Origin: a virus | Lineage: Duplodnaviria; Heunggongvirae; Uroviricota; Caudoviricetes | Reading direction: 5' to 3' (one strand) | Virus record (IMG/VR): IMGVR_UViG_2698536657_000012 | Location: 1-10,433 of that record | DNA length: 10,433 nt | In this document: in pieces, positions 1-10,433 of the stretch | Numbering within the stretch: the first letter of the stretch is position 1 | How the letters are laid out: each line of letters begins with the position of its first letter | Made by a program: the position numbers and the translations under genes | The notes under the pieces: model-generated | What the model was told of the DNA's origin: nothing | Databases searched by the model: none | The model's input: the letters and a program-made list of their open reading frames with translations, nothing else

Positions 1-6
1 GCATGC

Positions 7-252
7 TTACATCATCATGTCGCTGTCGGGTGTGGGTTCACCGCCATCTGAAGCACTCCCGTCACCCGCAATGCCTTCCGGCTCCGGAACAGCCGGTGCG
101 CCCAGCAGTTCATCCAGAATGGCATCCACTTCTGCATCAAGACGCGACTCAAGGTTCTGGCGGAGTTTCTGTTTCAGTGCGCTCAGGACTTCTTCAGAGC
201 GCAGGACTTCCTTCAATGCTTCAGCAGTGACCAGGGGTTTTACTTCTGACAT
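7..252 (-). CDS. Hypothetical small acidic protein, 82 aa from the ATG at 250-252 (MSEVKPLVTAEALKEV...); the ORF-track ORF extends to 414 but has no better start
   Basis: Complete ORF with TAA stop at 7-9; helix-like, non-repetitive composition, unlike the S/R-rich overlapping plus-strand ORFs; weak SD (GAGAAAA). Function not recognised. Confidence 0.4.
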   Translation of the reverse strand: MSEVKPLVTAEALKEVLRSEEVLSALKQKLRQNLESRLDAEVDAILDELLGAPAVPEPEGIAGDGSASDGGEPTPDSDMMM

Positions 253-277
253 AGGATTTTCTCGCTGAAAGGGGTTA

Positions 278-460
278 TTAAGGAGTAATGGGCTCTTCGG
301 GTTTGCTTCCGGCTGACTGACTGGCGCTGATTTTCTCTGCGGCCCTTTTATCAATCTGCCTGCGCCAGAAATCGCGCACTGCCCTGTACCCACCTGAAAG
401 AAGATACAGCACACAGACCGCCGTACAGAAGTACAGCATCACCTGATGAATAAATATCAT
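278..460 (-). CDS. Small predicted membrane protein, 60 aa: one N-terminal hydrophobic helix (IFIHQVMLYFCTAVCVLYLL) and a charged C-terminal tail
   Basis: ATG at 458-460, TAA stop at 278-280; strongly hydrophobic N-terminus followed by a basic/acidic tail; lies directly downstream of nanS-p in the same orientation. Confidence 0.4.
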   Translation of the reverse strand: MIFIHQVMLYFCTAVCVLYLLSGGYRAVRDFWRRQIDKRAAEKISASQSAGSKPEEPITP

Positions 461-478
461 AATTTCTTACCGTTATGG

Positions 479-508
479 TTGACAATGAGAACTGTTTTCA
501 TTTAAAAA
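479..508 (+). promoter_or_regulatory. Candidate sigma70 promoter on the plus strand: perfect -35 TTGACA (479-484), A/T-rich -10 region (TTTAAAAA, about 501-508)
   Basis: Consensus -35 hexamer with a 16-18 nt spacer to a weak -10; would start a plus-strand transcript about 80 nt upstream of the terminator at 558-594. Confidence 0.3.
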
Positions 509-557
509 ACCAATGTACGAAAGCATCTTTTCTTTATTTTCTCCATGGGTATTACCA

Positions 558-594
558 CCGCCAGCTTCCATTCCTGCCGCTGGCGGCTTTTTTT
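558..594 (+). terminator. Intrinsic-terminator-like hairpin (CCGCCAGC ... GCTGGCGG) followed by T7 on the plus strand
   Basis: 8-bp GC-rich stem with a ~13-nt loop, then TTTTTTT on the plus strand; on the minus strand it is preceded by A7 and not followed by a U-tract. It sits just 3' of the nanS-p stop codon (600-602). Confidence 0.5.
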
Positions 595-599
595 AGCAA

Positions 600-2558
600 T
601 TATGCGGCTGCTCCAGCTTTGTTTGCTTTAACTTCCACCGTATCAATAAGTACAGGGTAAGTTTCAGCAGTACCTGTAATATCCGTAATGACAAACCTGT
701 TGAGTTCATTAGCAGTATTGGCCCATTTCACCAGGTCAAACGCCTGTCCATCCACGCCATCAAACACCGGAGTAACATTAATGCTGTTACTGCCCTTAAA
801 TTTAAATGCAAGCGTATGCCAGTCATGGTCGAATGCGCCAAACGTGCCAAGTTCTTTTTGTTGATTACCTGTATGATGGTATGCAACATCAATACTGGCT
901 TTATCTGTCTGGACAAAGAAAGAACTCAGATAGCCTTCACCACCCTCACCCGGCCATTCCGCTATTCGCCAGTACAAACCAAAGGCATACTTGTTTCTGG
1001 TTGTTTCAAGATTGACGTTTTCAGGGATTTTAAACCGGACAGCAATTTCCCCGCCTTTTTCCAGTAACAGTTTTGCCTTGTCTGCAGCAATATCACAGTA
1101 CATTGACCAGGATTTCGCGCTGTTATTTTTCTCAATTCGCAGAGCTTTATTGCCGCTGTCATCAACCAGTGTGCGTCTGCCATCCATACCGTCCCAGCCA
1201 TAAGGTTTCAGCTGATTGTCCGAAGCTTTTTTGGCATCGTAGAGAATGACAGACTCCGAAGTGGCAACCGTATTTTCTTCATTATGAGCTTCAGAAGCTG
1301 GCGATGAAGAAGATGTTGGCGCCTCTTCCGGTGCTGTTACTTCTGTAATACCATTCACAAAGGCAGATGATTTACCTGCATAGGTTACAATTGCTGTTGC
1401 CAGTCGATCCGAAACGATACCTCGACGAGCCCATGAGCTAAAATGGCTATCTCTGTACTGTGACGTCCATGTTGTTGAACTATCACGCCATCTGGAGCCA
1501 TAATATCCAATAGCTTCAATATCCGGGTCTTCCTCGGGCTTATTGGTTGTAACATTTGCATTATTTTCATCCGTCATAAACGGAACAAAATAAATAGCCT
1601 TATCCGTTTTCCCTTTGTAACCACCGTACACAACTTCATATTGAGACGCGTATTTGGTTTTCCAGTAATACGTGGTATCGCCGCAAATCCAGGGGACTTT
1701 CGCAGCACTACCATATACGCATTGAGCATCATATTTCTCTAACTCAGTGCGGAAACCTTCAACCATTTTCAGGAAAAGTGCATTGTGTTCTGCATGTTTT
1801 CCGGCAGCCATATCTGCCTCACCCTGCATCCAGACAACGCCAAGAAATACGTTCTTTTTGTTTTTGTCTAATGCAGCTTTGGTTCTGGCAACCAGATCTT
1901 TATATAGAGGTGTCCCAAGCCCCCATTTTGATGATGCGTCGATTGCGCCAGAGGCTTCATAATACTGTCCTTCTGTTCCGGTACTAAAGCCTGATCCGCC
2001 ACGTCCACAAGGGACCAGCAGAATACCTGCATTAGCAGGGATAAATGGCAGTAGTTTCTTACCAATATGCAAACCCTGGCCAACACAACCGTATTCTGCA
2101 TCTTTAGCTTTGGGGTGTTTTAGCCTGGTCATATCTTCAACATCATGAAGACAATGGTCTGCCGGAATGATGTCGTTATATTTACAGGGAGTACCTCCCG
2201 GTGTCACCGTACTGCGACGCGCCAGCTGCTTAATACGCGGGTCCGGACGGTCATATGTCTCCGGCAGCGGAAGGCCTTCACCATATGCCATGCTGTTTGA
2301 CTGGCCAGCCAGCGTAATCACGTAGTAATACTCCGGGTCGCTGGTGGCGCTGATAACTGTGCCTTCTCCATCCGACGGCTTCACCACCACAGGTGTGGTG
2401 ACATCACCTTCCGCCGCAATGGCCTGCATCAGGGTATAAGGCGTGATGGCCACCGGGCTGCCAAATGGCTGCCACCCCTCCTTCAGTTTTTGAGTCAGTC
2501 GCTCCGCAAGGTCTGACGGCGACGCCGCCCTGACCACGTCATAGTGTTTAAATGCCAT
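600..2558 (-). CDS. nanS-p: Prophage-encoded sialate (9-O-acetyl-Neu5Ac) O-acetylesterase NanS-p: N-terminal DUF1737-like region, SGNH/SASA esterase core with GQSN motif, C-terminal carbohydrate-binding-like region
   Basis: 652-aa ORF with ATG at 2556-2558 and strong SD (GGGAGG); ITLAGQSNSMAYGEG esterase motif; N-terminus MAFKHYDVV typical of the family; position downstream of the tRNA/toxin locus as in Stx prophages. Confidence 0.88.
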   Translation of the reverse strand: MAFKHYDVVRAASPSDLAERLTQKLKEGWQPFGSPVAITPYTLMQAIAAEGDVTTPVVVKPSDGEGTVISATSDPEYYYVITLAGQSNSMAYGEGLPLPETYDRPDPRIKQLARRSTVTPGGTPCKYNDIIPADHCLHDVEDMTRLKHPKAKDAEYGCVGQGLHIGKKLLPFIPANAGILLVPCGRGGSGFSTGTEGQYYEASGAIDASSKWGLGTPLYKDLVARTKAALDKNKKNVFLGVVWMQGEADMAAGKHAEHNALFLKMVEGFRTELEKYDAQCVYGSAAKVPWICGDTTYYWKTKYASQYEVVYGGYKGKTDKAIYFVPFMTDENNANVTTNKPEEDPDIEAIGYYGSRWRDSSTTWTSQYRDSHFSSWARRGIVSDRLATAIVTYAGKSSAFVNGITEVTAPEEAPTSSSSPASEAHNEENTVATSESVILYDAKKASDNQLKPYGWDGMDGRRTLVDDSGNKALRIEKNNSAKSWSMYCDIAADKAKLLLEKGGEIAVRFKIPENVNLETTRNKYAFGLYWRIAEWPGEGGEGYLSSFFVQTDKASIDVAYHHTGNQQKELGTFGAFDHDWHTLAFKFKGSNSINVTPVFDGVDGQAFDLVKWANTANELNRFVITDITGTAETYPVLIDTVEVKANKAGAAA

Positions 2559-2755
2559 GAATCCTCCCGGTCGGGATAATGTTGTGAGTCAGATAAGGGG
2601 CGGGCTGAAGTCCGGAAGTTACAGGACAATGACAGAAGGAAGACTACAGCCCGCAATACGAAAAAGGCCGCGCAGTTGCGCAGAGTGATTACTGTCGGGT
2701 ATTATTCGCCAGCTGAAAAATTGATTACTTCACGTTTTGTTGTTTATTCCTTGCT

Positions 2756-2784
2756 GCCCGCATCTCACCATGCGGGCTTTTTTT
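2756..2784 (+). terminator. Plus-strand intrinsic terminator: GCCCGCAT-ctcacc-ATGCGGGC followed by TTTTTTT
   Basis: Perfect 8-bp stem, 6-nt loop, T7 run immediately 3' on the plus strand. Confidence 0.5.
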
Positions 2785-2788
2785 ATCC

Positions 2789-2815
2789 ATAAGAAAGCCC
2801 CTCCGGAGAGGGGCT
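2789..2815 (-). terminator. Minus-strand intrinsic terminator T1: AGCCCCTC-(4-nt loop)-GAGGGGCT followed by UUCUUAU; marks the end of repeat copy 1
   Basis: Perfect 8-bp GC-rich stem; U-rich tract only on the minus strand. Confidence 0.5.
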
Positions 2816-3045
2816 GGAGTAGCGCTATGTACCGTTCATTGCATGATGCCGGGTGCCTCCCGGTGAGTTCAGCCCGGTGCCACCGAACCCGCGTCATTCT
2901 CGCTAACGATCATCAGAGACCATACCGTACACCAGCCGCCCCTCCGCACAGGGGGATTCATCATGCAGAAATTTTTTAACAAATTCTCAGTCGGGAAGAC
3001 AACCTTCAACTGACTGAATTGTGAGCAACATAGCATTTAACGGGG
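2796..3045. repeat. Copy 1 of a tandemly duplicated ~250-nt structured non-coding element (period ~487 bp)
   Basis: Shares with copy 2: AAAGCCCCTCCGGAGAGGGGCTG (23/23); TGCCGGGTGCCTCCCGGTGAGTTCAG (26/26); GAACCCGC; GCCCCTCCGC(A/T)CAGGGGGATTCA(T/C)CATGC; TTTTAACAAA; CTGAATTGTGAG ... CGGGG. The same order and spacing are preserved. Confidence 0.7.
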
Positions 3046-3059
3046 AACCTGTTTTCTGC

Positions 3060-3090
3060 AGTAAAAAGGCCCACCGGAGCGGACGGGCCT
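3060..3090 (-). terminator. Minus-strand terminator-like hairpin (AGGCCC ... GGGCCT) followed by UUUUUAC
   Basis: 6-bp outer stem plus inner CCG/CGG pairs; T5 on the minus strand; lies in the spacer between the two repeat copies. Confidence 0.35.
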
Positions 3091-3275
3091 GGAAGGATAG
3101 CGGTCATGTGATGCCGGTTTCCCGGTAACTCAGCACCGGTATCTGAGTCAACGTTTTCTCTACTGGGTCATTTCCGATACGCCCTGCCTGCTGACAGGCT
3201 TTCATCACATCTGAAAATATAGCACCCTGACTGATACTGTAGTACCCAAGGTTCCAGAAACTGTGATGTATCCGG

Positions 3276-3303
3276 CACAGAAAAGCCCCTCCGGAGAGGG
3301 GCT
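3276..3303 (-). terminator. Minus-strand intrinsic terminator T2: same AGCCCCTC/GAGGGGCT hairpin as T1, followed by UUUUCUGUG; marks the end of repeat copy 2
   Basis: Identical 8-bp stem to copy 1; U-rich tract on the minus strand only. Confidence 0.5.
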
Positions 3304-3530
3304 GACGCTGCGTATCTGTATCATCATGCGCATGGTGCCGGGTGCCTCCCGGTGAGTTCAGTATCAGCACCTGAACCCGCACAGAAAGGATAAGGGATGT
3401 AACCAAACACCTGTCGCTGATATGCCCCTCCGCTCAGGGGGATTCACCATGCCAGTTTCTTTTAACAAACTCCCCGCAAATCAGACAACTGTCAACCGTC
3501 TGAATTGTGAGACATTTAAAATTTTCGGGG
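3284..3530. repeat. Copy 2 of the tandemly duplicated ~250-nt structured non-coding element
   Basis: See copy 1; conserved blocks are identical in order and offset by 486-489 nt; intervening sequence has diverged. Confidence 0.7.
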
Positions 3531-3581
3531 CAACAGGAAGACAATCATCACGACACCGGCAACCAGCGACCGGCACCAGAT

Positions 3582-4517
3582 TTAACGTATGTGCACACAA
3601 CCTGAACCGGCATCAAAAAACAAACCGTGCACTGACAGAAAACGGGAAACCTCCGTCCGCTGATCATCACTCATTAAGGACCACACAAAGGCGTTATGCT
3701 CATCTTCAAGTTTCCGTCTTCTTGTTTGCCTTACAAGCAACTCAGCCGTCACCTGTACAATGTCAATGACCTCCTTCTCTTCAGCAATGTACGGCCTGTT
3801 CCAGTTGTCTGTGTTAATCTTCTCCGTCACCGGCGCTGACTTTTTGCAAGTTTCCCCATTAAACCCGACGCCATAAACAACAACATCATCGCTTTGCTTT
3901 TCGTTATCAATAATGACGAATAATACAGAAACCGATGTATCAGCGAACCCGCCTGAAATCTGAACCAACTCAACAACGCGGTTGCCAAAATACTGACGCA
4001 TTGCCAGCTCACCACGCCTGTAACCAACCCCGGGAAAGCACAAAAAAAATGAAAATCTTGCCTTCATGCTCGCCAGAACATAAAACGCGTCATCCAGAAC
4101 ACCGGAGGTCTTTTTATAAGGCATCATCGCTGAAATCTTCTCCCTGATATCCGCGCTCTGTGCTTTGTACTGTAGCGAAAAAGGCGGATTCATGATGACA
4201 CAATCGAACGTGTCCGTGTCACTGACATCATCGATGGCGTTGAAGAAATTTTCATTGACCGTCTTCACTGTGGCATCCGGGAAATTATCCGGGATATGCA
4301 CCAACGGAGAGGCCTGTATATCCACAGCATACAGACTTCCCACCGTGAGAAACTGCTCCAGTTGCCCGGAGCCACACGCACCATCAAAAATACTCAGGGG
4401 CAGATCACCACAATATTCCCGCACTTTTTCAGCGACAAACCGACGCAAAGGAACGGACGTGATGTACTCTGCGTATTTTCTGGCGACATCGCGATTATTG
4501 GACTCCTGAAAAACCAT
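3582..4517 (-). CDS. Putative orphan gamma-class N6-adenine (amino) DNA methyltransferase-like protein (311 aa from ATG at 4517; 331 aa if the GTG at 4577 is used)
   Basis: Motif I FDGACGSGQL followed about 65 aa later by motif IV NPPF (order I then IV = gamma class); no adjacent restriction gene; neither candidate start has a clear SD. Target (DNA versus RNA) cannot be told from sequence alone. Confidence 0.6.
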   Translation of the reverse strand: MVFQESNNRDVARKYAEYITSVPLRRFVAEKVREYCGDLPLSIFDGACGSGQLEQFLTVGSLYAVDIQASPLVHIPDNFPDATVKTVNENFFNAIDDVSDTDTFDCVIMNPPFSLQYKAQSADIREKISAMMPYKKTSGVLDDAFYVLASMKARFSFFLCFPGVGYRRGELAMRQYFGNRVVELVQISGGFADTSVSVLFVIIDNEKQSDDVVVYGVGFNGETCKKSAPVTEKINTDNWNRPYIAEEKEVIDIVQVTAELLVRQTRRRKLEDEHNAFVWSLMSDDQRTEVSRFLSVHGLFFDAGSGCVHIR

Positions 4518-4602
4518 TTGTGAAAGGCTCTGTGGTTGATATGCGCCGGGCGTGGCGCGGAGGCAAAAAAGGCCCACAAAAGCGAGCCAGGAAAAATAAG
4601 TG

Positions 4603-4679
4603 TGGTGCGTTGTACTGGATTCGAACCCGTGACCGATTGCTTAGAAGGCAATTGCTCTGTCCGGCTGAGCTAACAACGC
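4603..4679 (-). tRNA. argO: tRNA-Arg (anticodon UCU)
   Basis: 77 nt; acceptor stem GCGTTGT/ACAACGC, discriminator A and encoded CCA; D-arm GCTC...GAGC; anticodon loop CTTCTAA; T-loop TTCGAAT. Gene symbol assigned from the ileZ-argN-argO order known in Stx prophages. Confidence 0.85.
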
Positions 4680-4692
4680 AGTGTACAGATAA

Positions 4693-4769
4693 TGGACCGC
4701 CATCGAGGACTCGAACCCCGCGCAACCAGCTTCGAAGGCTGGCGCTCTATCCCGATGAGCTAATGGCGG
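4693..4769 (-). tRNA. argN: tRNA-Arg (anticodon UCG)
   Basis: 77 nt; acceptor CCGCCAT/ATGGCGG with encoded CCA; anticodon stem CCAGC/GCTGG with loop CTTCGAA; T-arm CGGGG-TTCGAGT-CCTCG. Confidence 0.8.
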
Positions 4770-4776
4770 TATGTGA

Positions 4777-4852
4777 TGGTGGCCCTTGCTGGATTTGAAC
4801 CAGCGACCTGGCGATTATGAGTCGCTCGCTCTCACCACTGAGCTAAAGGGCC
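4777..4852 (-). tRNA. ileZ: tRNA with CAU anticodon, ileX-like (tRNA-Ile2, lysidine type) rather than Met
   Basis: 76 nt; GGCCCTT acceptor stem, anticodon loop CTCATAA, T-loop TTCAAAT, encoded CCA; overall close to E. coli ileX as recalled from memory. Confidence 0.8.
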
Positions 4853-4861
4853 GGGCGCAGG

Positions 4862-4890
4862 ATAATAACGGTACGTAACTAATCCTGCAA
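4862..4890 (-). promoter_or_regulatory. Candidate sigma70 promoter for the tRNA cluster: -35 TTGCAG, 17-nt spacer, -10 TATTAT, about 8 nt upstream of the tRNA-Ile 5' end
   Basis: Read on the minus strand: TTGCAGgattagttacgtaccgtTATTATcctgcgcc followed by the tRNA; -10 matches 5/6. Confidence 0.45.
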
Positions 4891-4892
4891 TA

Positions 4893-5951
4893 TCATCCGT
4901 TCTGACTGGCTAAATCCTGAACTTCCCTGACCGTCTGCTCAAAACGTTCAGTCTCCAGCTCAACGCCAGTTGCACGACGCCCCAGCGCCATCGCTGCTTT
5001 GACTGTCGAACCCGACCCCATGAAAAAATCTGCAACCAGGTCACCCGGACGACTGCTCGCGCTGATTATCTGCTGCAGCATTTCTGCCGGTTTTTCGCAC
5101 GGATGTTTCCCGGGATAGTACTGCACCGGTTTATGCGTCCACACATCGGTGTACGGCACCTGCGCCGTCACACCGAAATACCGCCGCAGATGCTTATATT
5201 CACTCTGCAGTTCCGTATAGTGTCGGTTCAGTTCACTGTATGTGCTGACCAGTTGGTGATGTGGCTTTTCCAGTTCTCCGCGCTGATGCTTCTCTTCTGC
5301 CACCCGGGCAAACAGCGCCTGTAATTTCAGATAATCGCTTTCGTCCGGTAGCTGCCACTGACTGGCACTGAACCAGTGCGACACCATGTTTTTCTTTCCT
5401 GTGGCATCAGCAATCTGTTTTGCCGTTATCCCCAGGGCAGCACGTGCATCACGAAAGTAAGCAATCAGCGGGGCCATCACATGCTGTTTCAGTGCCCTGC
5501 CCTTCGCCTCATACCCGGCATCTTTCGGACGATACGGCCCCTGATAATGTTCCGCGAACAGAATGCGCTCTGTGGCGGGGAAATACGCCCTCAGGCTTTC
5601 CTTGTTGCACCCGTTCCAGCGTCCGGACGGCTTCGCCCAGATAATATGGTTCAGCACACTGAAGCGTTCACGCATCATGATTTCAATGTCAGATGCCAGG
5701 CGATGGCCACAGAACAGGTAAAGACTTCCGGCAGGTTTCAGCACCCGCCAGAACTGCGCCAGACACTGGTCCAGCCACTTCAGGTAATCATCGTCGCCCT
5801 TCCACTGGTTATCCCAGCCCTCAGGCTTCACTTTAAAGTACGGCGGGTCCGTGACTATCAGGTCAACAGAATTTTCGGGTAACGACCGGATAAATTCCAG
5901 GCAGTCGGCGTTGATTAACTCACAACTGGATATTTTTACAGTATTAAGCAT
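4893..5951 (-). CDS. DNA methyltransferase, beta-class N6-adenine/N4-cytosine family (PF01555-like), 352 aa
   Basis: N-terminal motif IV (SVDLIVTDPPYF) and C-terminal motif I (DFFMGSGSTVKAA): the order IV then I is the beta-class hallmark. No adjacent endonuclease ORF. Confidence 0.88.
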   Translation of the reverse strand: MLNTVKISSCELINADCLEFIRSLPENSVDLIVTDPPYFKVKPEGWDNQWKGDDDYLKWLDQCLAQFWRVLKPAGSLYLFCGHRLASDIEIMMRERFSVLNHIIWAKPSGRWNGCNKESLRAYFPATERILFAEHYQGPYRPKDAGYEAKGRALKQHVMAPLIAYFRDARAALGITAKQIADATGKKNMVSHWFSASQWQLPDESDYLKLQALFARVAEEKHQRGELEKPHHQLVSTYSELNRHYTELQSEYKHLRRYFGVTAQVPYTDVWTHKPVQYYPGKHPCEKPAEMLQQIISASSRPGDLVADFFMGSGSTVKAAMALGRRATGVELETERFEQTVREVQDLASQNG

Positions 5952-6084
5952 GGATCATTAAGCCTGTCTCTGATAGGCTCATTCTGCTTTTGCGCAAAGC
6001 AGTGGGCCTGAGGTTTGCTTGTGATCCGGACGCATGAGCAGATGGCTGGTGAGTGCCCCTAACACCCACCAGCCGCCCATTTAC

Positions 6085-6115
6085 CACAAATAAAAAAGCC
6101 TTCAGGACTGAAGGC
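6085..6115 (-). terminator. Minus-strand intrinsic terminator: GCCTTCA-GGAC-TGAAGGC followed by UUUUUUAUUUG; overlaps the stop codon of the wHTH ORF
   Basis: 7-8 bp stem and a long U-tract on the minus strand. Confidence 0.55.
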
Positions 6116-6299
6116 GTCTGTAACAACCGAACTGATAGTCTGCCAGACCCGCCATAACAAGCTGGGTCAGTATTAACTGGCAGCGTTCACGTGAAAGATA
6201 AGTATTCTGCGCAATCTCCCCGACTGTCGCCGGTTCGGTGGCACTTAATTCATTAAACACCACTCTGGCGGTTTCTGTCATATCCTGCTGTTTCAGCAT
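6102..6299 (-). CDS. Small (about 65 aa) winged-helix/HTH-like protein, putative DNA-binding regulator (MLKQQDMTETARVVFNELSATEPATVGEIAQNTYLSRERCQLILTQLVMAGL...)
   Basis: ORF-track ORF 6102-6335 has a TTG at its 5' end; the first ATG has an SD (AAGGGAAAAAG). The TVGEIAQ...LSRERCQLILTQL segment looks like an HTH recognition unit. Family not identified. Confidence 0.5.
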   Translation of the reverse strand: MLKQQDMTETARVVFNELSATEPATVGEIAQNTYLSRERCQLILTQLVMAGLADYQFGCYRRLQS

Positions 6300-6420
6300 G
6301 TCTTTTTCCCTTTTCCGGTTAACGTGACACACCAATAACTCTTGTCAAAAAAGCCAGCAAGCTGAAAGACCGGTATTCACCACCACCAGCGCGTTTACTG
6401 TACTGACGAGATTTTCGGAC

Positions 6421-6451
6421 ATAAAAAAAACCACCTGGCGGTGGTTTTTTC
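6421..6451 (-). terminator. Strong intrinsic terminator, tR'-like: CCACC-GCCA-GGTGG followed by U8 on the minus strand (flanked by A8 and T6, so the hairpin is bidirectional)
   Basis: Perfect GC-rich stem with long A/T runs on both sides; located about 60-70 nt downstream of the candidate late promoter. Confidence 0.7.
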
Positions 6452-6493
6452 TTACTTTGCCATCGCGTACAAAATCGGCAAAATATCAGATTT

Positions 6494-6528
6494 ATACGAA
6501 ACATACGCGATTTAATTGACTTTTGCAA
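6494..6528 (-). promoter_or_regulatory. Candidate late promoter (pR'-like): -35 TTGCAA, 17-nt spacer, -10 TATGTT, read on the minus strand; overlaps the last codons of the Q-like ORF
   Basis: Hexamers each 4/6 to consensus with ideal spacing; position relative to the upstream ORF and the downstream terminator fits the lambdoid Q-pR'-tR' layout. Confidence 0.4.
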
Positions 6529-7201
6529 TATCTCGTCGTGAAAAGGTCGCTTTTTGTTGCGCTCTTATTTTCACGGAGCAAATCAAGGATTCTCTATCGA
6601 GGCGCTTAAAAATATCGCACATCTCACGCCAGTAGTTCGCATAATTATGGCTCCAGTTATCAGGCTTAACTCCACACAGTCTGGCAAGCTCCTGTCTCTG
6701 GTAGACCTCACACCCGGTAACCCATCCTCTGACATCCTGTGCCGCCAGCCAGATCAACTTCTTCACACGCTCCAGCGTTTTCACTGCAATTTTTCTGGAG
6801 CCGGACTGAGTTTTAAATTCACTCCACACCCACTGTGTTATGGTGACCTGATCTTCCCAGCAAACATTTCCACTGTAGCACCACAGTAACCACGCCTTCT
6901 GATGTTCTTCCAGTTCCAGAACGGCACGCCGCCACGATGATGTTGCAAACTCAACCGGACTGACCAGAGCAATTGACGTCCCTTTCGCCAGTGATTGTTT
7001 GCCCGGGATCGGTGGATTATCCCGCGTGATCATTTTTCCGGTTACCTCATCGCGGTAACGAATTTTTTTACGTCTGTAACGCCCTGTATCGAACAGGGCA
7101 TTTTCCTGCCAGGCTTCCAGCTGGCCTTTTGTCGACCCACTGAGATCCGCAGTGGCAATCATGAGTTGCTCACGAACAAACTGTAAATACTGGCTATTCA
7201 T
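6512..7201 (-). CDS. Q-like late antiterminator candidate, 229 aa from ATG at 7199-7201 (functional call is positional only)
   Basis: The ORF itself is solid; its start overlaps the rusA stop (ATGAATAG). It lies between rusA and the pR'/tR'-like module, where lambdoid phages encode Q, but no lambda-type Cys4 zinc motif was recognised; a Roi-like or other nin-region protein is possible. Confidence 0.55.
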   Translation of the reverse strand: MNSQYLQFVREQLMIATADLSGSTKGQLEAWQENALFDTGRYRRKKIRYRDEVTGKMITRDNPPIPGKQSLAKGTSIALVSPVEFATSSWRRAVLELEEHQKAWLLWCYSGNVCWEDQVTITQWVWSEFKTQSGSRKIAVKTLERVKKLIWLAAQDVRGWVTGCEVYQRQELARLCGVKPDNWSHNYANYWREMCDIFKRLDRESLICSVKIRAQQKATFSRRDIAKVN

Positions 7202-7556
7202 GCACACCCACCTCTGTAATTCTTATCTCCAGCCGTCCACCAGATACTGGCTGGCCACGTACAATATTGATTTCATCAAACTGCTCATCGTCCATTAACA
7301 TTCCCGCATGCGTCAGCGCATCCAGCGGCGCTTTCAGAATATTGTCCAGGTCACGACGACGCTTATCCGGTGGCTCTGCAATAATTTTTATTGCCAGCCG
7401 TCCGGACAGTCTTAATTTCAGCCGCTGCTGGCGAACAATAAGCGCCACTGCACGGCGATAACGCTCCCCGGCTTTTGATACAAAATATGTGCTGCCACGG
7501 CGTCGCCAGTAAGTGTTCACCGTCGGCGGGTAAGGTAAAACCAAATCTATGAGCAT
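7194..7556 (-). CDS. rusA: Holliday-junction resolvase RusA (crossover junction endodeoxyribonuclease), 120 aa
   Basis: ATG with strong SD (AGAGGTGA); conserved RusA blocks (PPDKRRRDLDNILKAPLDALTHAGMLMDDEQ... GGRLEIRITE) match E. coli RusA as recalled from memory. Confidence 0.88.
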   Translation of the reverse strand: MLIDLVLPYPPTVNTYWRRRGSTYFVSKAGERYRRAVALIVRQQRLKLRLSGRLAIKIIAEPPDKRRRDLDNILKAPLDALTHAGMLMDDEQFDEINIVRGQPVSGGRLEIRITEVGVHE

Positions 7557-7568
7557 CAGTCACCTCTT

Positions 7569-8618
7569 TTACCCGAGCACGCCAGTCGCAAAGGCGTGAT
7601 CAAGAAAACGAAAAATTAACTCAATCTGAGAGCCGTACTTTTTCTCAAACTCCAGCGGGTCTGCATGAAGTTCGTTGTGGTGCTCCCGGCACAACGGTAG
7701 CGTGAAAATATCGTGGGCCTTTGTTCCCATTCCCCCCTGACCATGGCCAATCAGGTGATGCGGATCGTCGGCTGGCTTACCACAACACGCGCACGGCTGT
7801 GTCTTAACCCAGCGCGTGTATTTCTCATTAACCCAACGGCGACGTTTAGGCCGCCTCATGAACGATTCAGGAGACTCCGGATCAACGGCGATACTGACAA
7901 CCGTTTTTTTCTGTGGTGGATTTTGTTGCTGGTGGACGTGAAGTGGCAGCGCAATATTTTTTGTGCGCTGCTTCAGTATGCTGATGGCTGTCTGTTCTCC
8001 CGGTACGATGTCACTCTCACGGTATACGGAGCGGATTTTTCCCACCGGTAATCCCAGTGAACGACGCAATACAGACTCCGGAAGCGCATCAGCCACCTGA
8101 TTGCAGACCGCCCACCAGCATAACTCTGCCAGCGACAGTTCCCGCTCCTGTGTGCCATTCATTGCGTGACGTATGACATCAATCATCCAGGCTGCCAGAT
8201 TCTGCTGAGCAAGTTGATCGAGTGATTCTGATGTCTGGTCGCGCTGCTGGTTGTCACAGTGCCAGCACAACACCATCGCGCCGGTACCGTAACGGTGAAT
8301 GACGGTTTCGCTGTGATGATAATCGCCATGTGGCCACTGGCAGGATTTCACGTGACGTAATAACCAGTCAGACAGTGCACCTGCACCCCCCGCAGCACGA
8401 ATCACCCGTTCGTTGCTGAAAAATGGCAGTAATGTTTTATCCTCTGCCAGCGACTGTCGAACGGCGGGAACGACTCCGGACGGCAGACCGCGCATGTTTT
8501 TCGGTTCCGGCTCCACCAGTATTCTGCCGTTATGGAATGCTGACATTGATTCACGGCCCGGCTTTAGGAGCACCATCCCGAGTTCTGGCACCAGAACAGG
8601 TCGAAGTAATACCCGCAC
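7569..8618 (-). CDS. DUF968-family prophage protein (YdfU-like), 349 aa, with a C-terminal Cys/His-rich HNH/NinG-like motif
   Basis: GTG start preceded by a perfect SD (GGAGGtaacGTG) that overlaps the upstream ORF's TAA stop; C-terminus PCACCGKPADDPHHLIGHGQGG...LCREHHNELHAD. Confidence 0.75.
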   Translation of the reverse strand: MRVLLRPVLVPELGMVLLKPGRESMSAFHNGRILVEPEPKNMRGLPSGVVPAVRQSLAEDKTLLPFFSNERVIRAAGGAGALSDWLLRHVKSCQWPHGDYHHSETVIHRYGTGAMVLCWHCDNQQRDQTSESLDQLAQQNLAAWMIDVIRHAMNGTQERELSLAELCWWAVCNQVADALPESVLRRSLGLPVGKIRSVYRESDIVPGEQTAISILKQRTKNIALPLHVHQQQNPPQKKTVVSIAVDPESPESFMRRPKRRRWVNEKYTRWVKTQPCACCGKPADDPHHLIGHGQGGMGTKAHDIFTLPLCREHHNELHADPLEFEKKYGSQIELIFRFLDHAFATGVLG

Positions 8619-8619
8619 G

Positions 8620-8898
8620 TTACCTCCAGATGCGCTGCTGGAATGTGCGGGACGGACGCGGTGGGCGTTCGGAATAAGGGAGCCTGACGGAGATTATCCA
8701 GTGGCGACGGTCAAGACTGAGAGCTTTCTCAAACTCATACCCGCGTCTGCGGTAGTTCTGAATCAACCATTCGGCCTGTTCTTCAGTGCATGGGGCATGC
8801 TGGAACCAGTCAGATTTGAATGCATGAGAACGCCGCCCGTGCCTGCTGGCAGGGGCGGCGAAGTTATCCGAATTGTGTAATTTTGTATCGTGCGCCAT
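8620..8898 (-). CDS. Hypothetical nin-region protein, 92 aa from ATG at 8896-8898 (ORF-track version starts at a TTG at 8979)
   Basis: Its stop is translationally coupled to the DUF968 gene start. No motif recognised; positionally comparable to the small genes next to ydfU in Qin-like prophages. Confidence 0.45.
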   Translation of the reverse strand: MAHDTKLHNSDNFAAPASRHGRRSHAFKSDWFQHAPCTEEQAEWLIQNYRRRGYEFEKALSLDRRHWIISVRLPYSERPPRPSRTFQQRIWR

Positions 8899-8978
8899 CG
8901 GTTGTCTCTGCTGGCGCAGCAGGTGCCAGTTGTTCAGGCTGGCGTGCGGATTGTAAACCAGAATACGGGGGTAACACA

Positions 8979-8998
8979 AAGCCCGCCTCTGTGGGCTT
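8979..8998. other. GC-rich hairpin (AAGCCC-8 nt-GGGCTT) between the hicAB operon and the nin-region genes; possible weak terminator
   Basis: 6-bp stem; flanks are only moderately T-rich on either strand; coincides with the compositional boundary of the AT-rich moron. Confidence 0.3.
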
Positions 8999-9003
8999 GA
9001 TTA

Positions 9004-9438
9004 TTAAGCCGAGCCCGGCACATACCAAGGGAAATAAATATCACTTAACGACGTGTGTTTGAGAACAGAGTCCACCGCCAATTTCAACGTCAACGACATG
9101 AAATTCTCAAAATACCATGAATTTTCTACAAAGAACTTTTCATCGATCGCCCCTCCATTAATGATATCAAAGTCCGTAATCAGCTCCATCTTTAACTCAA
9201 AAGATGGTTCTTCATCACCGACAGGCTCTCCCTCTCTATCAGGATACCCTTTTATCGATGGCGAAAACCCAATCCGAAACCAACTGGTACCATCATCATC
9301 ACGCCCCGAAGCAAATTTAAGTTCCTCAATCGAGACCTTAAAAAAACCTCCATCATCACTAGTGTTATCCCTGAAACTACTGGAAACTATATCGAAACCA
9401 GCATACTTAATATTTTTTAACATCAGTGACGTATCCAT
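9004..9438 (-). CDS. Hypothetical acidic protein, 144 aa, third gene of the hicA-hicB operon
   Basis: ATG at 9436-9438 lies 16 nt upstream of the hicB stop (overlapping genes); SD-like GAGG about 10 nt upstream; D/E-rich; AT-rich codon usage like hicAB. No recognisable domain. Confidence 0.6.
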   Translation of the reverse strand: MDTSLMLKNIKYAGFDIVSSSFRDNTSDDGGFFKVSIEELKFASGRDDDGTSWFRIGFSPSIKGYPDREGEPVGDEEPSFELKMELITDFDIINGGAIDEKFFVENSWYFENFMSLTLKLAVDSVLKHTSLSDIYFPWYVPGSA

Positions 9439-9899
9439 CGCTCACTAACCTCTTTCCTTTTTGTTCTTACTGAAGATGGAACAACATAATTAAGAAGAAA
9501 TACGCCATCCCAAACAAGTGTATCTGCCGTTTCTTTATTTTCGGGATGAGAATGAACTTCTTTTTTACCTGCAATCTTTTCTTCAATGGCTTTACGCACA
9601 TAATCATTAAGCGTCGTCTTATCCATCATTGCAGCCAAAAACGCTTTCTTATGAAGATCGCGACCTATTCTGATGTTAAAAGTACCACTCATTGGTTTAT
9701 CAGGAGATTTACCCAACTGCTTGCATGTATCGAGGTAATCTGTAACAGCCTCTTCAAAAGCTGCCCTTAACCCATCCAGTGTTTCCGCTTCGTAGGTTAC
9801 AACATCGTTTACACACTGAATTTTCCCATGAAGTATGTTATCTTCAAGAGAAATCTCAATGCTACCAAAATAACCTTTATAACTCAGCACATTACTCAT
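9423..9899 (-). CDS. hicB: HicB-family antitoxin (COG4226-like N-terminal domain fused to a C-terminal ribbon-helix-helix-like DNA-binding segment), 158 aa from ATG at 9897-9899
   Basis: YKGYFGSIE...EDNILHGKI...YEAETLDGLRAAFEEAVTDYLDTCKQLGK..P.KP.SGTFNIRIGRDLHKKA matches the conserved HicB pattern as recalled from memory; its ATG overlaps the hicA stop (ATGAGTAA). Confidence 0.78.
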   Translation of the reverse strand: MSNVLSYKGYFGSIEISLEDNILHGKIQCVNDVVTYEAETLDGLRAAFEEAVTDYLDTCKQLGKSPDKPMSGTFNIRIGRDLHKKAFLAAMMDKTTLNDYVRKAIEEKIAGKKEVHSHPENKETADTLVWDGVFLLNYVVPSSVRTKRKEVSERWIRH

Positions 9900-10140
9900 A
9901 ACTATCAATCTCATCCAAAAGATTTTTCACTTCTTTAAGCACATATCCTTTAACAATATTGCCAGGATGTGGGCAATGAAAAGCCACAAGCCTTCCATTA
10001 CCATTGGCAAACTTCCTTCTTGAGCCTGAGCCGGTAAGCATTTCGAAACCATAATGCCCAAGCAACGTCACGAGTTCATCCCATGTAAAATCCTTTGGAA
10101 GCTGATTCAGACGCCCCCTCAACTTCTCTTTTTTGCTCAT
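9892..10140 (-). CDS. hicA: HicA-family mRNA-interferase toxin (YcfA-like), 82 aa
   Basis: Small basic protein, WDELVTLLGHYGFEM...GSGSRRKF...FHCPHPGNIVKGYVLKEV, consistent with the HicA fold motif; located immediately upstream of and overlapping hicB in the canonical toxin-first order. Confidence 0.75.
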   Translation of the reverse strand: MSKKEKLRGRLNQLPKDFTWDELVTLLGHYGFEMLTGSGSRRKFANGNGRLVAFHCPHPGNIVKGYVLKEVKNLLDEIDSYE

Positions 10141-10168
10141 TTAAAGTATATCCCTTCCCCCACCAATA

Positions 10169-10187
10169 GCAACTAATAATCAGTTGC
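10169..10187. promoter_or_regulatory. Inverted repeat GCAACT-n7-AGTTGC upstream of hicA; candidate operator for the RHH-type HicB
   Basis: Perfect 6-bp arms separated by 7 nt, about 30 nt upstream of the hicA start, within an A/T-rich putative promoter region. Confidence 0.4.
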
Positions 10188-10433
10188 AAACTCAGCGCGA
10201 TAAAGAAGCATAAGAATCCTGCACCTAATACATAACTTAAGAAAACACGTGTGAGCATGAAAATGCTACAATAATGTTTAAATCACTTACCAGTAAGGTT
10301 AAGTGCGGGTGCGTTGAGGATGCCTGACACATCAGAGGTAGCGGGAGATTACTCTCCCGCCTGGTCACTCTTACTCATCAGGTTCGTAGACTGTGAAAAC
10401 AGCGACCTCCGTCTGGCCGGTTCGGATTCGTAC

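Follow-up and report, generated by a model that had tools for sequence, protein, structure and literature searches.

Toxin-antitoxin-chaperone (TAC) systems have been recognised since 2011. Those of the HicAB type with a ribbon-helix-helix (RHH) HicB were catalogued in 2012 (Sala et al., PMC3581621), and one of them, from Methylomonas, was validated experimentally in 2016 (Bordes et al., PMC5105189). In this Mmet-TAC of Methylomonas methanica MC09, composed of HicA (Metme_2813), HicB (Metme_2812) and SecB^TA (Metme_2811), the chaperone is needed to silence the toxin and the chaperone addiction region (ChAD) of the antitoxin is transferable (PMC5105189). Between 2022 and 2024 the E. coli prophage TACs HigBAC (strain NT1F31), CmdTAC and MqsRAC were shown to defend against phage (10.1101/2024.02.24.581848; PMC9519451, PMC11618068), with the chaperone sensing phage structural proteins, lambda gpV in the case of HigBAC (Mets et al., bioRxiv 10.1101/2024.02.24.581848). 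Here we describe a three-gene cassette (9004-10140) in a 10,433-nt stretch of viral DNA (IMG/VR record IMGVR_UViG_2698536657_000012; the whole stretch analysed is hereafter the window), which is very probably a TAC system of the HicAB type, residing as a moron among the nin genes of an E. coli prophage of the lambdoid group.

An earlier note on this DNA had described hicA, hicB and an overlapping acidic open reading frame (ORF) of unknown function. The overlaps were confirmed, while the third protein is now predicted to have a SecB-like chaperone fold, and the novelty that the note implied for a third gene in hicAB falls away, as tripartite TACs were already established, including HicAB with an RHH HicB (PMC3581621) and the Mmet-TAC (PMC5105189). 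Published TAC work is in line with its suggestion that the third protein might serve a defence module as an accessory factor or as a component that senses phage.

All three genes lie on the minus strand (positions are those of the whole window) and are linked in the order toxin, antitoxin, chaperone, which is kept in all related loci. The first, hicA (9892-10140), encodes an 82-aa HicA-family toxin, a predicted RNase or mRNA interferase, whose membership was established with Pfam (PF07927 HicA_toxin, E 1.1e-9, 38.7 bits against a gathering cutoff of 27) and PHROG (8887 'toxin', 6.8e-26), and which RefSeq labels HicA family toxin. It overlaps hicB (9423-9899; 158 aa, ATG in ATGAGTAA, stop codon 9425-9423) by 8 nt (9892-9899). 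HicB matches Pfam PF05534 over residues 55-105 (E 9.7e-18, 64.3 bits against a cutoff of 21) and PHROG 9151 (HicB-like) over residues 1-118 of 158, which leaves some 40-46 residues beyond the core; a β-strand/helix/helix pattern of RHH type can be read from its sequence (FNIRI...DLHKKAFLAAM...LNDYVRKAIEEKI). The earlier division of HicB into an N-terminal domain and an RHH-like C-terminus was borne out by the Pfam match and this pattern, but it had overlooked the C-terminal extension past the RHH domain. The third gene (9004-9438) encodes an acidic protein with a predicted SecB fold, a putative TAC chaperone, which in its 144-aa form has an isoelectric point of 4.3 and 26 D+E against 13 K+R residues. 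Its annotated ATG lies 16 nt within hicB (overlap 9423-9438). Translation may, however, start at the ATG of Met6 (9423-9421) rather than at 9438, giving 139 aa, because Met6 aligns with the first residue of the relatives (ML..I) and its ATG shares one base with the hicB TGA (CTGATG), a classic coupling junction that recurs in two related loci (L008 and L010).

Alignment with tail-less homologues stops at the end of the hicB core (9564-9899, minus strand), the part recognised by PF05534 and PHROG 9151. The remaining residues 113-158 (9426-9563, minus strand) form a tail of about 46 aa, KEVHSHPENKETADTLVWDGVFLLNYVVPSSVRTKRKEVSERWIRH, which is missing from homologues of 110-120 aa and is a putative ChAD region. 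It is rich in aromatic and basic residues, the aromatic ones being W130, F134, Y137 and W155; SecB-type chaperones favour aromatic- and basic-rich stretches, and the ChADs of TACs depend on aromatic residues. Among relatives of the present HicB the majority have 147-179 aa and a minority 110-120 aa, the short ones stopping just past the RHH domain, so that this antitoxin of a canonical family carries, like those of TACs, a C-terminal extension that its chaperone-less homologues lack. The tails of the long relatives vary and have in common a KE-x-H-x-H start, aromatic residues, a basic patch and a C-terminal His, which at the level of sequence is the combination of aromatic residues and variability expected of a ChAD. 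In the validated Methylomonas HicB the ChAD comprises residues 119-159 (PMC5105189), an almost identical position to that of the present tail, which runs from about residue 113-119 to 158.

The tail also differs from the HicB core in how it evolves. At its start lies an A6 run (9561-9566, minus strand) within the codons of Lys112 and Lys113, a recurrent frameshift neighbourhood in the relatives: one HicB (P0010, locus L002) has a 1-nt deletion just upstream of the run that puts the tail out of frame, and two others (P0049, and P0015 in locus L005) likewise change frame at the run. The tail is much more variable than the core, with 67% against 97% identity in locus L003, where HicA and the HicB core are 96-97% and the chaperone is 80% identical to their counterparts in the window. 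In the more distant Kluyvera locus the values are 77% for HicA, 76% for the HicB core, 28% for the tail and 36% for the chaperone. Tail and chaperone therefore diverge fast together, with identities far below those of the toxin-antitoxin (TA) core in both loci, and this joint divergence fits a specific, co-evolving pair of ChAD and chaperone.

The product of the third gene is most likely a SecB-like chaperone. The predicted structure consists of a four-stranded antiparallel sheet followed by a long helix, as in SecB, and its best structural match is a TAC chaperone with a bound ChAD peptide; two Streptococcus proteins of unknown function (2o2a and 2hng) have the same fold. No match to the protein was obtained in Pfam, NCBIfam or PADLOC, nor among PDB sequences by phmmer and profile searches, the only PHROG match was to a family of unknown function, and RefSeq lists it as a hypothetical protein. 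A word-indexed homologue search reached only four close relatives, and 56 clusters at 50% identity, almost all of 130-150 aa, came to light only when 1.84 billion representatives were searched exhaustively with HMMER.

Set beside the described systems, the cassette shares with the Mmet-TAC the toxin-antitoxin-chaperone order, the HicA/HicB pair and an extension of about 40 aa on HicB that serves there as the ChAD, and the present HicB carries an RHH domain as TAC-associated HicBs do (PMC3581621). The chaperones, in contrast, appear to be unrelated. Metme_2811 has 161 aa, begins MNANLQKA and is a catalogued SecB homologue, with 17% identity to Mtb-SecB^TA and 53% to a Vibrio TAC chaperone (PMC5105189), whereas the present protein of 139-144 aa belongs to a small family in which no Pfam SecB signal is detectable. 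The tails are unrelated as well (Mmet HicB ends ...ALEKQYA, translated from cloning primers, and the present HicB ...RWIRH), and the Mmet-TAC resides on a methanotroph chromosome, the present cassette in an enterobacterial prophage known here from its sequence alone. In the M. tuberculosis TAC (HigB1-HigA1-SecB^TA, Rv1955-Rv1957; structure 5MTW, Guillet et al. 2019, PMC6377645) the pair is HigBA, with a ribosome-dependent RNase and a helix-turn-helix antitoxin, the context is chromosomal and stress-responsive, and Rv1957 has only 8% identity to the present chaperone in the structural alignment. HigBAC, CmdTAC and MqsRAC have other TA pairs (HigBA, the ADP-ribosyltransferase system CmdTA, and MqsRA) and chaperones that are SecB-like by sequence; neither HicA nor HicB is mentioned in the E. 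coli TAC defence literature that we text-searched. Two-gene HicAB systems, such as that of E. coli K-12 and the genuine tail-less relative P0060 (120 aa; loci L006 and L007), share the HicA and HicB families, an overlap of the 8-nt type and the GCAACT-N7-AGTTGC palindrome described below, but they lack the HicB extension and the third gene, and the operon ends directly after hicB at a terminator, in P0060 a terminator-like hairpin with a T-run. The export chaperone SecB (PF02556; 1QYN, 1FX3, 5JTL) is encoded at the housekeeping secB locus instead of a TA operon and shows no significant sequence similarity to the present protein. In the literature searched we found no description of the cassette, which differs from the known TACs in its sequence-orphan chaperone lineage and its lambdoid E. 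coli prophage setting and is as yet unstudied.

The tail and the third gene are linked by their joint occurrence. We collected 80 HicB loci from a one-genome-per-species collection and measured the tail length and the downstream ORFs; 76 of these, with at least 500 nt of downstream sequence, were used, 16 with a long tail (at least 30 aa) and 60 with a shorter one. An overlapping or abutting downstream ORF of 120-180 aa was found in 13/16 long-tailed and 3/60 short-tailed loci (Fisher p = 1.8e-9), and a member of the chaperone family of the window in 9/16 and 0/60, respectively (p = 8e-8), although both p values overstate the evidence somewhat because the loci are not phylogenetically independent. 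All three short-tailed positives, picked up by the criterion as applied mechanically, appear to be spurious reading frames in DNA of high GC content. In two further long-tailed loci (L035 and L071) the downstream ORFs align to E. coli SecB with 27-31% identity, so that at least two SecB-like lineages occur as partners of the present HicB subfamily. One apparent two-gene counter-example, the 119-aa HicB P0015, was rejected, being a frameshifted three-gene locus with the start of a chaperone gene downstream.

The triplet is also mobile as a unit. Among 5,426 complete E. coli genomes the block was present in 13, and all 13 carried the three genes. Most of these copies lie, as in the window, in the nin region between hokD and the small-ORF/DUF968/RusA/Q genes, another slot is downstream of a cI-like repressor, and in a distant version the 3' end is convergent with a Q antiterminator gene. 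Triplets of Kluyvera and Vibrio adjoin integrases, and all ten IMG/VR contigs with a chaperone relative carry the full triplet with a HicB tail of 39-46 aa; in the phage GenBank collection nothing closely similar to the block was found. The chaperone family also has a distant member, P0131 (L096 1634-2920; L097), encoded behind another pair of genes, for an uncharacterised 133-aa protein and an HTH_3 antitoxin of 150 aa. This locus, flanked by an integrase and a phage tail-fibre gene, is a candidate for a further TAC, one whose toxin is unclassified. TAC chaperones are described as being recruited by TA pairs of different families (PMC3581621), and the position of P0131 behind another TA pair corresponds to this modular behaviour.

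Composition points in the same direction. The cassette (9004-10140) has a GC content of 39.9%, compared with 54.2% for 7569-8979, 50.3% for 1-9003 and 52-54% for the DUF968/RusA/Q genes to its left, and even the lowest value among windows of the same size to the left (43.5%) is above it. The AT-rich character that had earlier been judged by eye is thereby put into figures, and together with the mobility it supports a horizontally acquired moron; that the third gene is an obligate partner in one coupled operon is likewise supported, as it travels with hicAB and co-occurs specifically with tailed HicB. The hairpin at which the block had been said to end is indeed present directly 3' of the third gene (8998-8979, minus strand; AAGCCCAC-AGAG-GCGGGCTT followed by TGTGTT) and is a possible weak terminator, but its stability (-9.8 kcal/mol) does not exceed that of shuffled sequence (z = -0.77), which makes it weak evidence for such an end. 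A terminator scan did not call it and gave terminator counts in the region not above those of shuffles. The hairpin also lies outside the mobile cassette, because homology with the copy in the cI-proximal slot is limited to 9023-10216. An Rfam scan gave no match inside or adjoining the cassette.

Upstream of hicA, what travels with the genes is a palindrome, GCAACT-N7-AGTTGC (10169-10187, minus strand), conserved about 50 nt from the gene and likely the operator of the HicB RHH domain, judging from its conservation. It was found at the same distance in 14 of 14 loci examined (E. coli variants, Kluyvera, Vibrio, viral contigs and the tail-less two-gene locus L006), while the flanking sequence is not conserved. 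The palindrome overlaps the -35-like hexamer of a sigma-70-like pair just upstream of the hicA ATG (TTGCTA-16-TATACT, 10145-10172, minus strand, 9/12 matches). The count of promoter-like sites in the region does not exceed that of shuffles, so the promoter call is weak on its own, and an element GGAT(A/G)TA kept near hicA across loci (GGATATACT/GGATGTA) could be a ribosome-binding site instead of part of a promoter. Conservation of a palindrome that overlaps a -35-like hexamer nevertheless suggests that the cassette brings its own control region, though it also lies inside the early rightward operon of the prophage. A hydrophobic ORF of 60 aa (10076-10258, minus strand), unannotated in RefSeq, overlaps the hicA promoter region and the first hicA codons in another frame and is probably spurious.

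From these features and by analogy with characterised TACs we infer toxicity, chaperone dependence, tail-chaperone binding, operator function and a phage trigger, in the following scheme. HicA would act as an RNase toxin and the N-terminal domain of HicB would neutralise it, while the RHH domain probably represses the operon at the palindrome. The tail of about 46 residues would be a ChAD element that leaves the antitoxin unstable or aggregation-prone when alone, and the translationally coupled SecB-fold chaperone would bind it co-translationally, keeping HicB functional and the toxin silent. Once the chaperone is diverted, HicB would be degraded, HicA freed and the cell shut down. By analogy with HigBAC and CmdTAC the most likely trigger would be an abundant structural protein of an infecting phage, and the outcome an abortive infection that protects the lysogen population. 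A more specific proposal, which we put forward tentatively and at somewhat less than an even chance, is that of a so far uncharacterised anti-phage TAC whose phage sensor is the sequence-orphan SecB-fold family; the tail/chaperone variants would recognise different phage structural proteins, and the sensor would have been recruited by at least two unrelated TA pairs (HicAB, and the 133-aa toxin with its HTH_3 antitoxin).

A TAC need not serve defence, and a rather unlikely, still serious alternative is that the same three components stabilise the prophage by addiction or form a stress-responsive growth switch, the trigger being misfolded host proteins that titrate the chaperone, or stress proteolysis. 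The original TAC literature describes stress induction instead of defence (PMC3581621). Other TA loci in the prophage (hokD, and relBE-like and MazF-like genes in the matching prophage L001) are of a kind often seen as addiction modules, and neither a defence phenotype of any HicAB-TAC in the literature searched nor a PADLOC match argues otherwise. Against this, phage defence was seen with each E. coli TAC that has been tested (CmdTAC, MqsRAC and HigBAC), the slots in which the cassette is found are classic prophage defence and moron positions, including the rexAB position downstream of cI where HigBAC sits, and a tail and chaperone that outpace the TA core look more like an arms race than like housekeeping stabilisation.

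Other observations bear on the assignment as a HicAB-type TAC itself, and the following weigh against it. No Pfam SecB match (PF02556) was obtained at E <= 1 for the window protein or the 53 aligned family members, and searches of PDB sequences with the family profile were empty. An hhalign comparison with E. coli SecB gave no match, and one with a thin SecB-like profile was weak (P = 0.004, probability 9%), the predicted β3-β4 of the family being paired with the SecB segment that corresponds to it; the downstream ORF of a Methylophaga locus (L014), a family member by local profile, had a sub-threshold SecB match (E 0.09). As sequence similarity to SecB is not significant, the chaperone assignment rests on the predicted fold plus context, and the predicted kinship with SecB is one of fold only. 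Moreover, 4/16 long-tailed HicB loci do not fit: one (L012) has a 30-aa tail and no downstream gene, in another (L043) the downstream ORF is PIN-like by eye, and in two (L045, 2943-3221, and L070, 2961-3272) tails of 45-50 aa are followed by an unrelated ORF of 92-103 aa with the motif HEGxYDxSxEF. A long tail is thus not always tied to a SecB-like partner, and the ORF of the latter two, from a Methylococcaceae and a Desulfocapsaceae metagenome-assembled genome, may be another kind of tail partner. PADLOC-DB v2 has no model for the cassette and gave only a weak AbiEii match to HicB (E 0.007), and, as noted, a published defence phenotype is missing for HicAB-TACs in the literature searched. Finally, GS-R-[RV]-K-F and a conserved H-x-P-H-P (HicA residues 39-44 and 55-58) characterise the HicA subfamily as a whole, whether or not a chaperone is present. 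Where the present subfamily has Arg, reference HicAs have the histidine of 'GSH', so that its catalytic residues may not be the same as in the HicAs studied, and the catalytic details are uncertain. We had considered the GS-R substitution as a TAC-specific trait of HicA and rejected it, as it was found throughout the subfamily.

If the resemblance to SecB ended at the fold, the third protein could be something other than an antitoxin chaperone, namely a second inhibitor or adaptor acting on HicA, or a holdase for a phage or host client, with the tail providing conditional cooperativity in operator binding or a degron. The fold-level link to SecB, the four long-tailed loci without a SecB-like partner and the Streptococcus proteins that share the fold, with their unknown function, would all be compatible with this. 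We nevertheless regard it as improbable: the top structural match is specifically a TAC chaperone holding a ChAD peptide, no family member stands beside a tail-less HicB in the 60 short-tailed loci, and gene order, coupling and tail position copy those of the validated HicAB-TAC. In addition, a family member follows the extended 150-aa HTH_3 antitoxin, and its occurrence after a different extended antitoxin indicates that the partner is the antitoxin and not HicA. That the 144-aa ORF is an unrelated neighbouring moron abutting a two-gene hicAB, as the absence of an annotated domain, the RefSeq label of hypothetical protein and the few E. coli copies available for comparison within the species might allow, is effectively refuted by its presence in 13/13 E. 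coli copies and in every context and genus examined for the tailed HicB lineage, by a start codon that overlaps the hicB stop, by the frameshifted three-gene nature of the sole apparent two-gene close relative and by the strong association with tail length.

The remainder of the window contains several further features of the prophage. At its right end (10371-10433) it cuts into hokD, a type I toxin gene (10422-10577 in L001), and with the relBE-like and MazF-like genes the matching prophage has at least four TA-type loci. This prophage, in the RefSeq genome JNEC-KY171 (L001), matches the cassette at 100%, while the spacing differs to the left of about position 6500, where the methyltransferase gene coordinates are shifted by some 700 nt and L001 has an annotated MazF-like gene; the prophage of the window may therefore be related but not identical to it. 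Three tandem tRNA genes (Rfam tRNA, 4606-4852, minus strand), which are Ile, Arg and Arg in the matching RefSeq prophage, lie between DNA methyltransferase genes at 4893-5951 and 3582-4577. Downstream of the second of these are two copies of the small RNA STnc100 (Rfam RF02076; 2785-2995 and 3275-3481, minus strand; 168 and 135 bits), and a gene for a 652-aa SASA-family esterase lies at 600-2558. We take this tRNA/methyltransferase/esterase arrangement to resemble that of Stx-like lambdoid phages; stx genes are absent.

The identification of this cassette gives a probable function to a family of hypothetical proteins (56 clusters, no Pfam entry) that annotation and defence finders have missed, and it implies that some E. 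coli prophage loci now labelled hicAB are in fact TACs with three components. The conceptual gain is modest, since both the architecture and the mechanism had been described before. The natural variants of tail and chaperone, together with the tail-frameshift alleles, form a built-in series for studying ChAD/chaperone specificity, and the cassette is a ready candidate for a phage-defence test of a HicAB-type TAC, since we found no phage phenotype of such a system in the literature searched. If the anti-phage sensor proposal is true, TAC immunity would gain a HicA RNase as 'warhead' and a new lineage of sensors.

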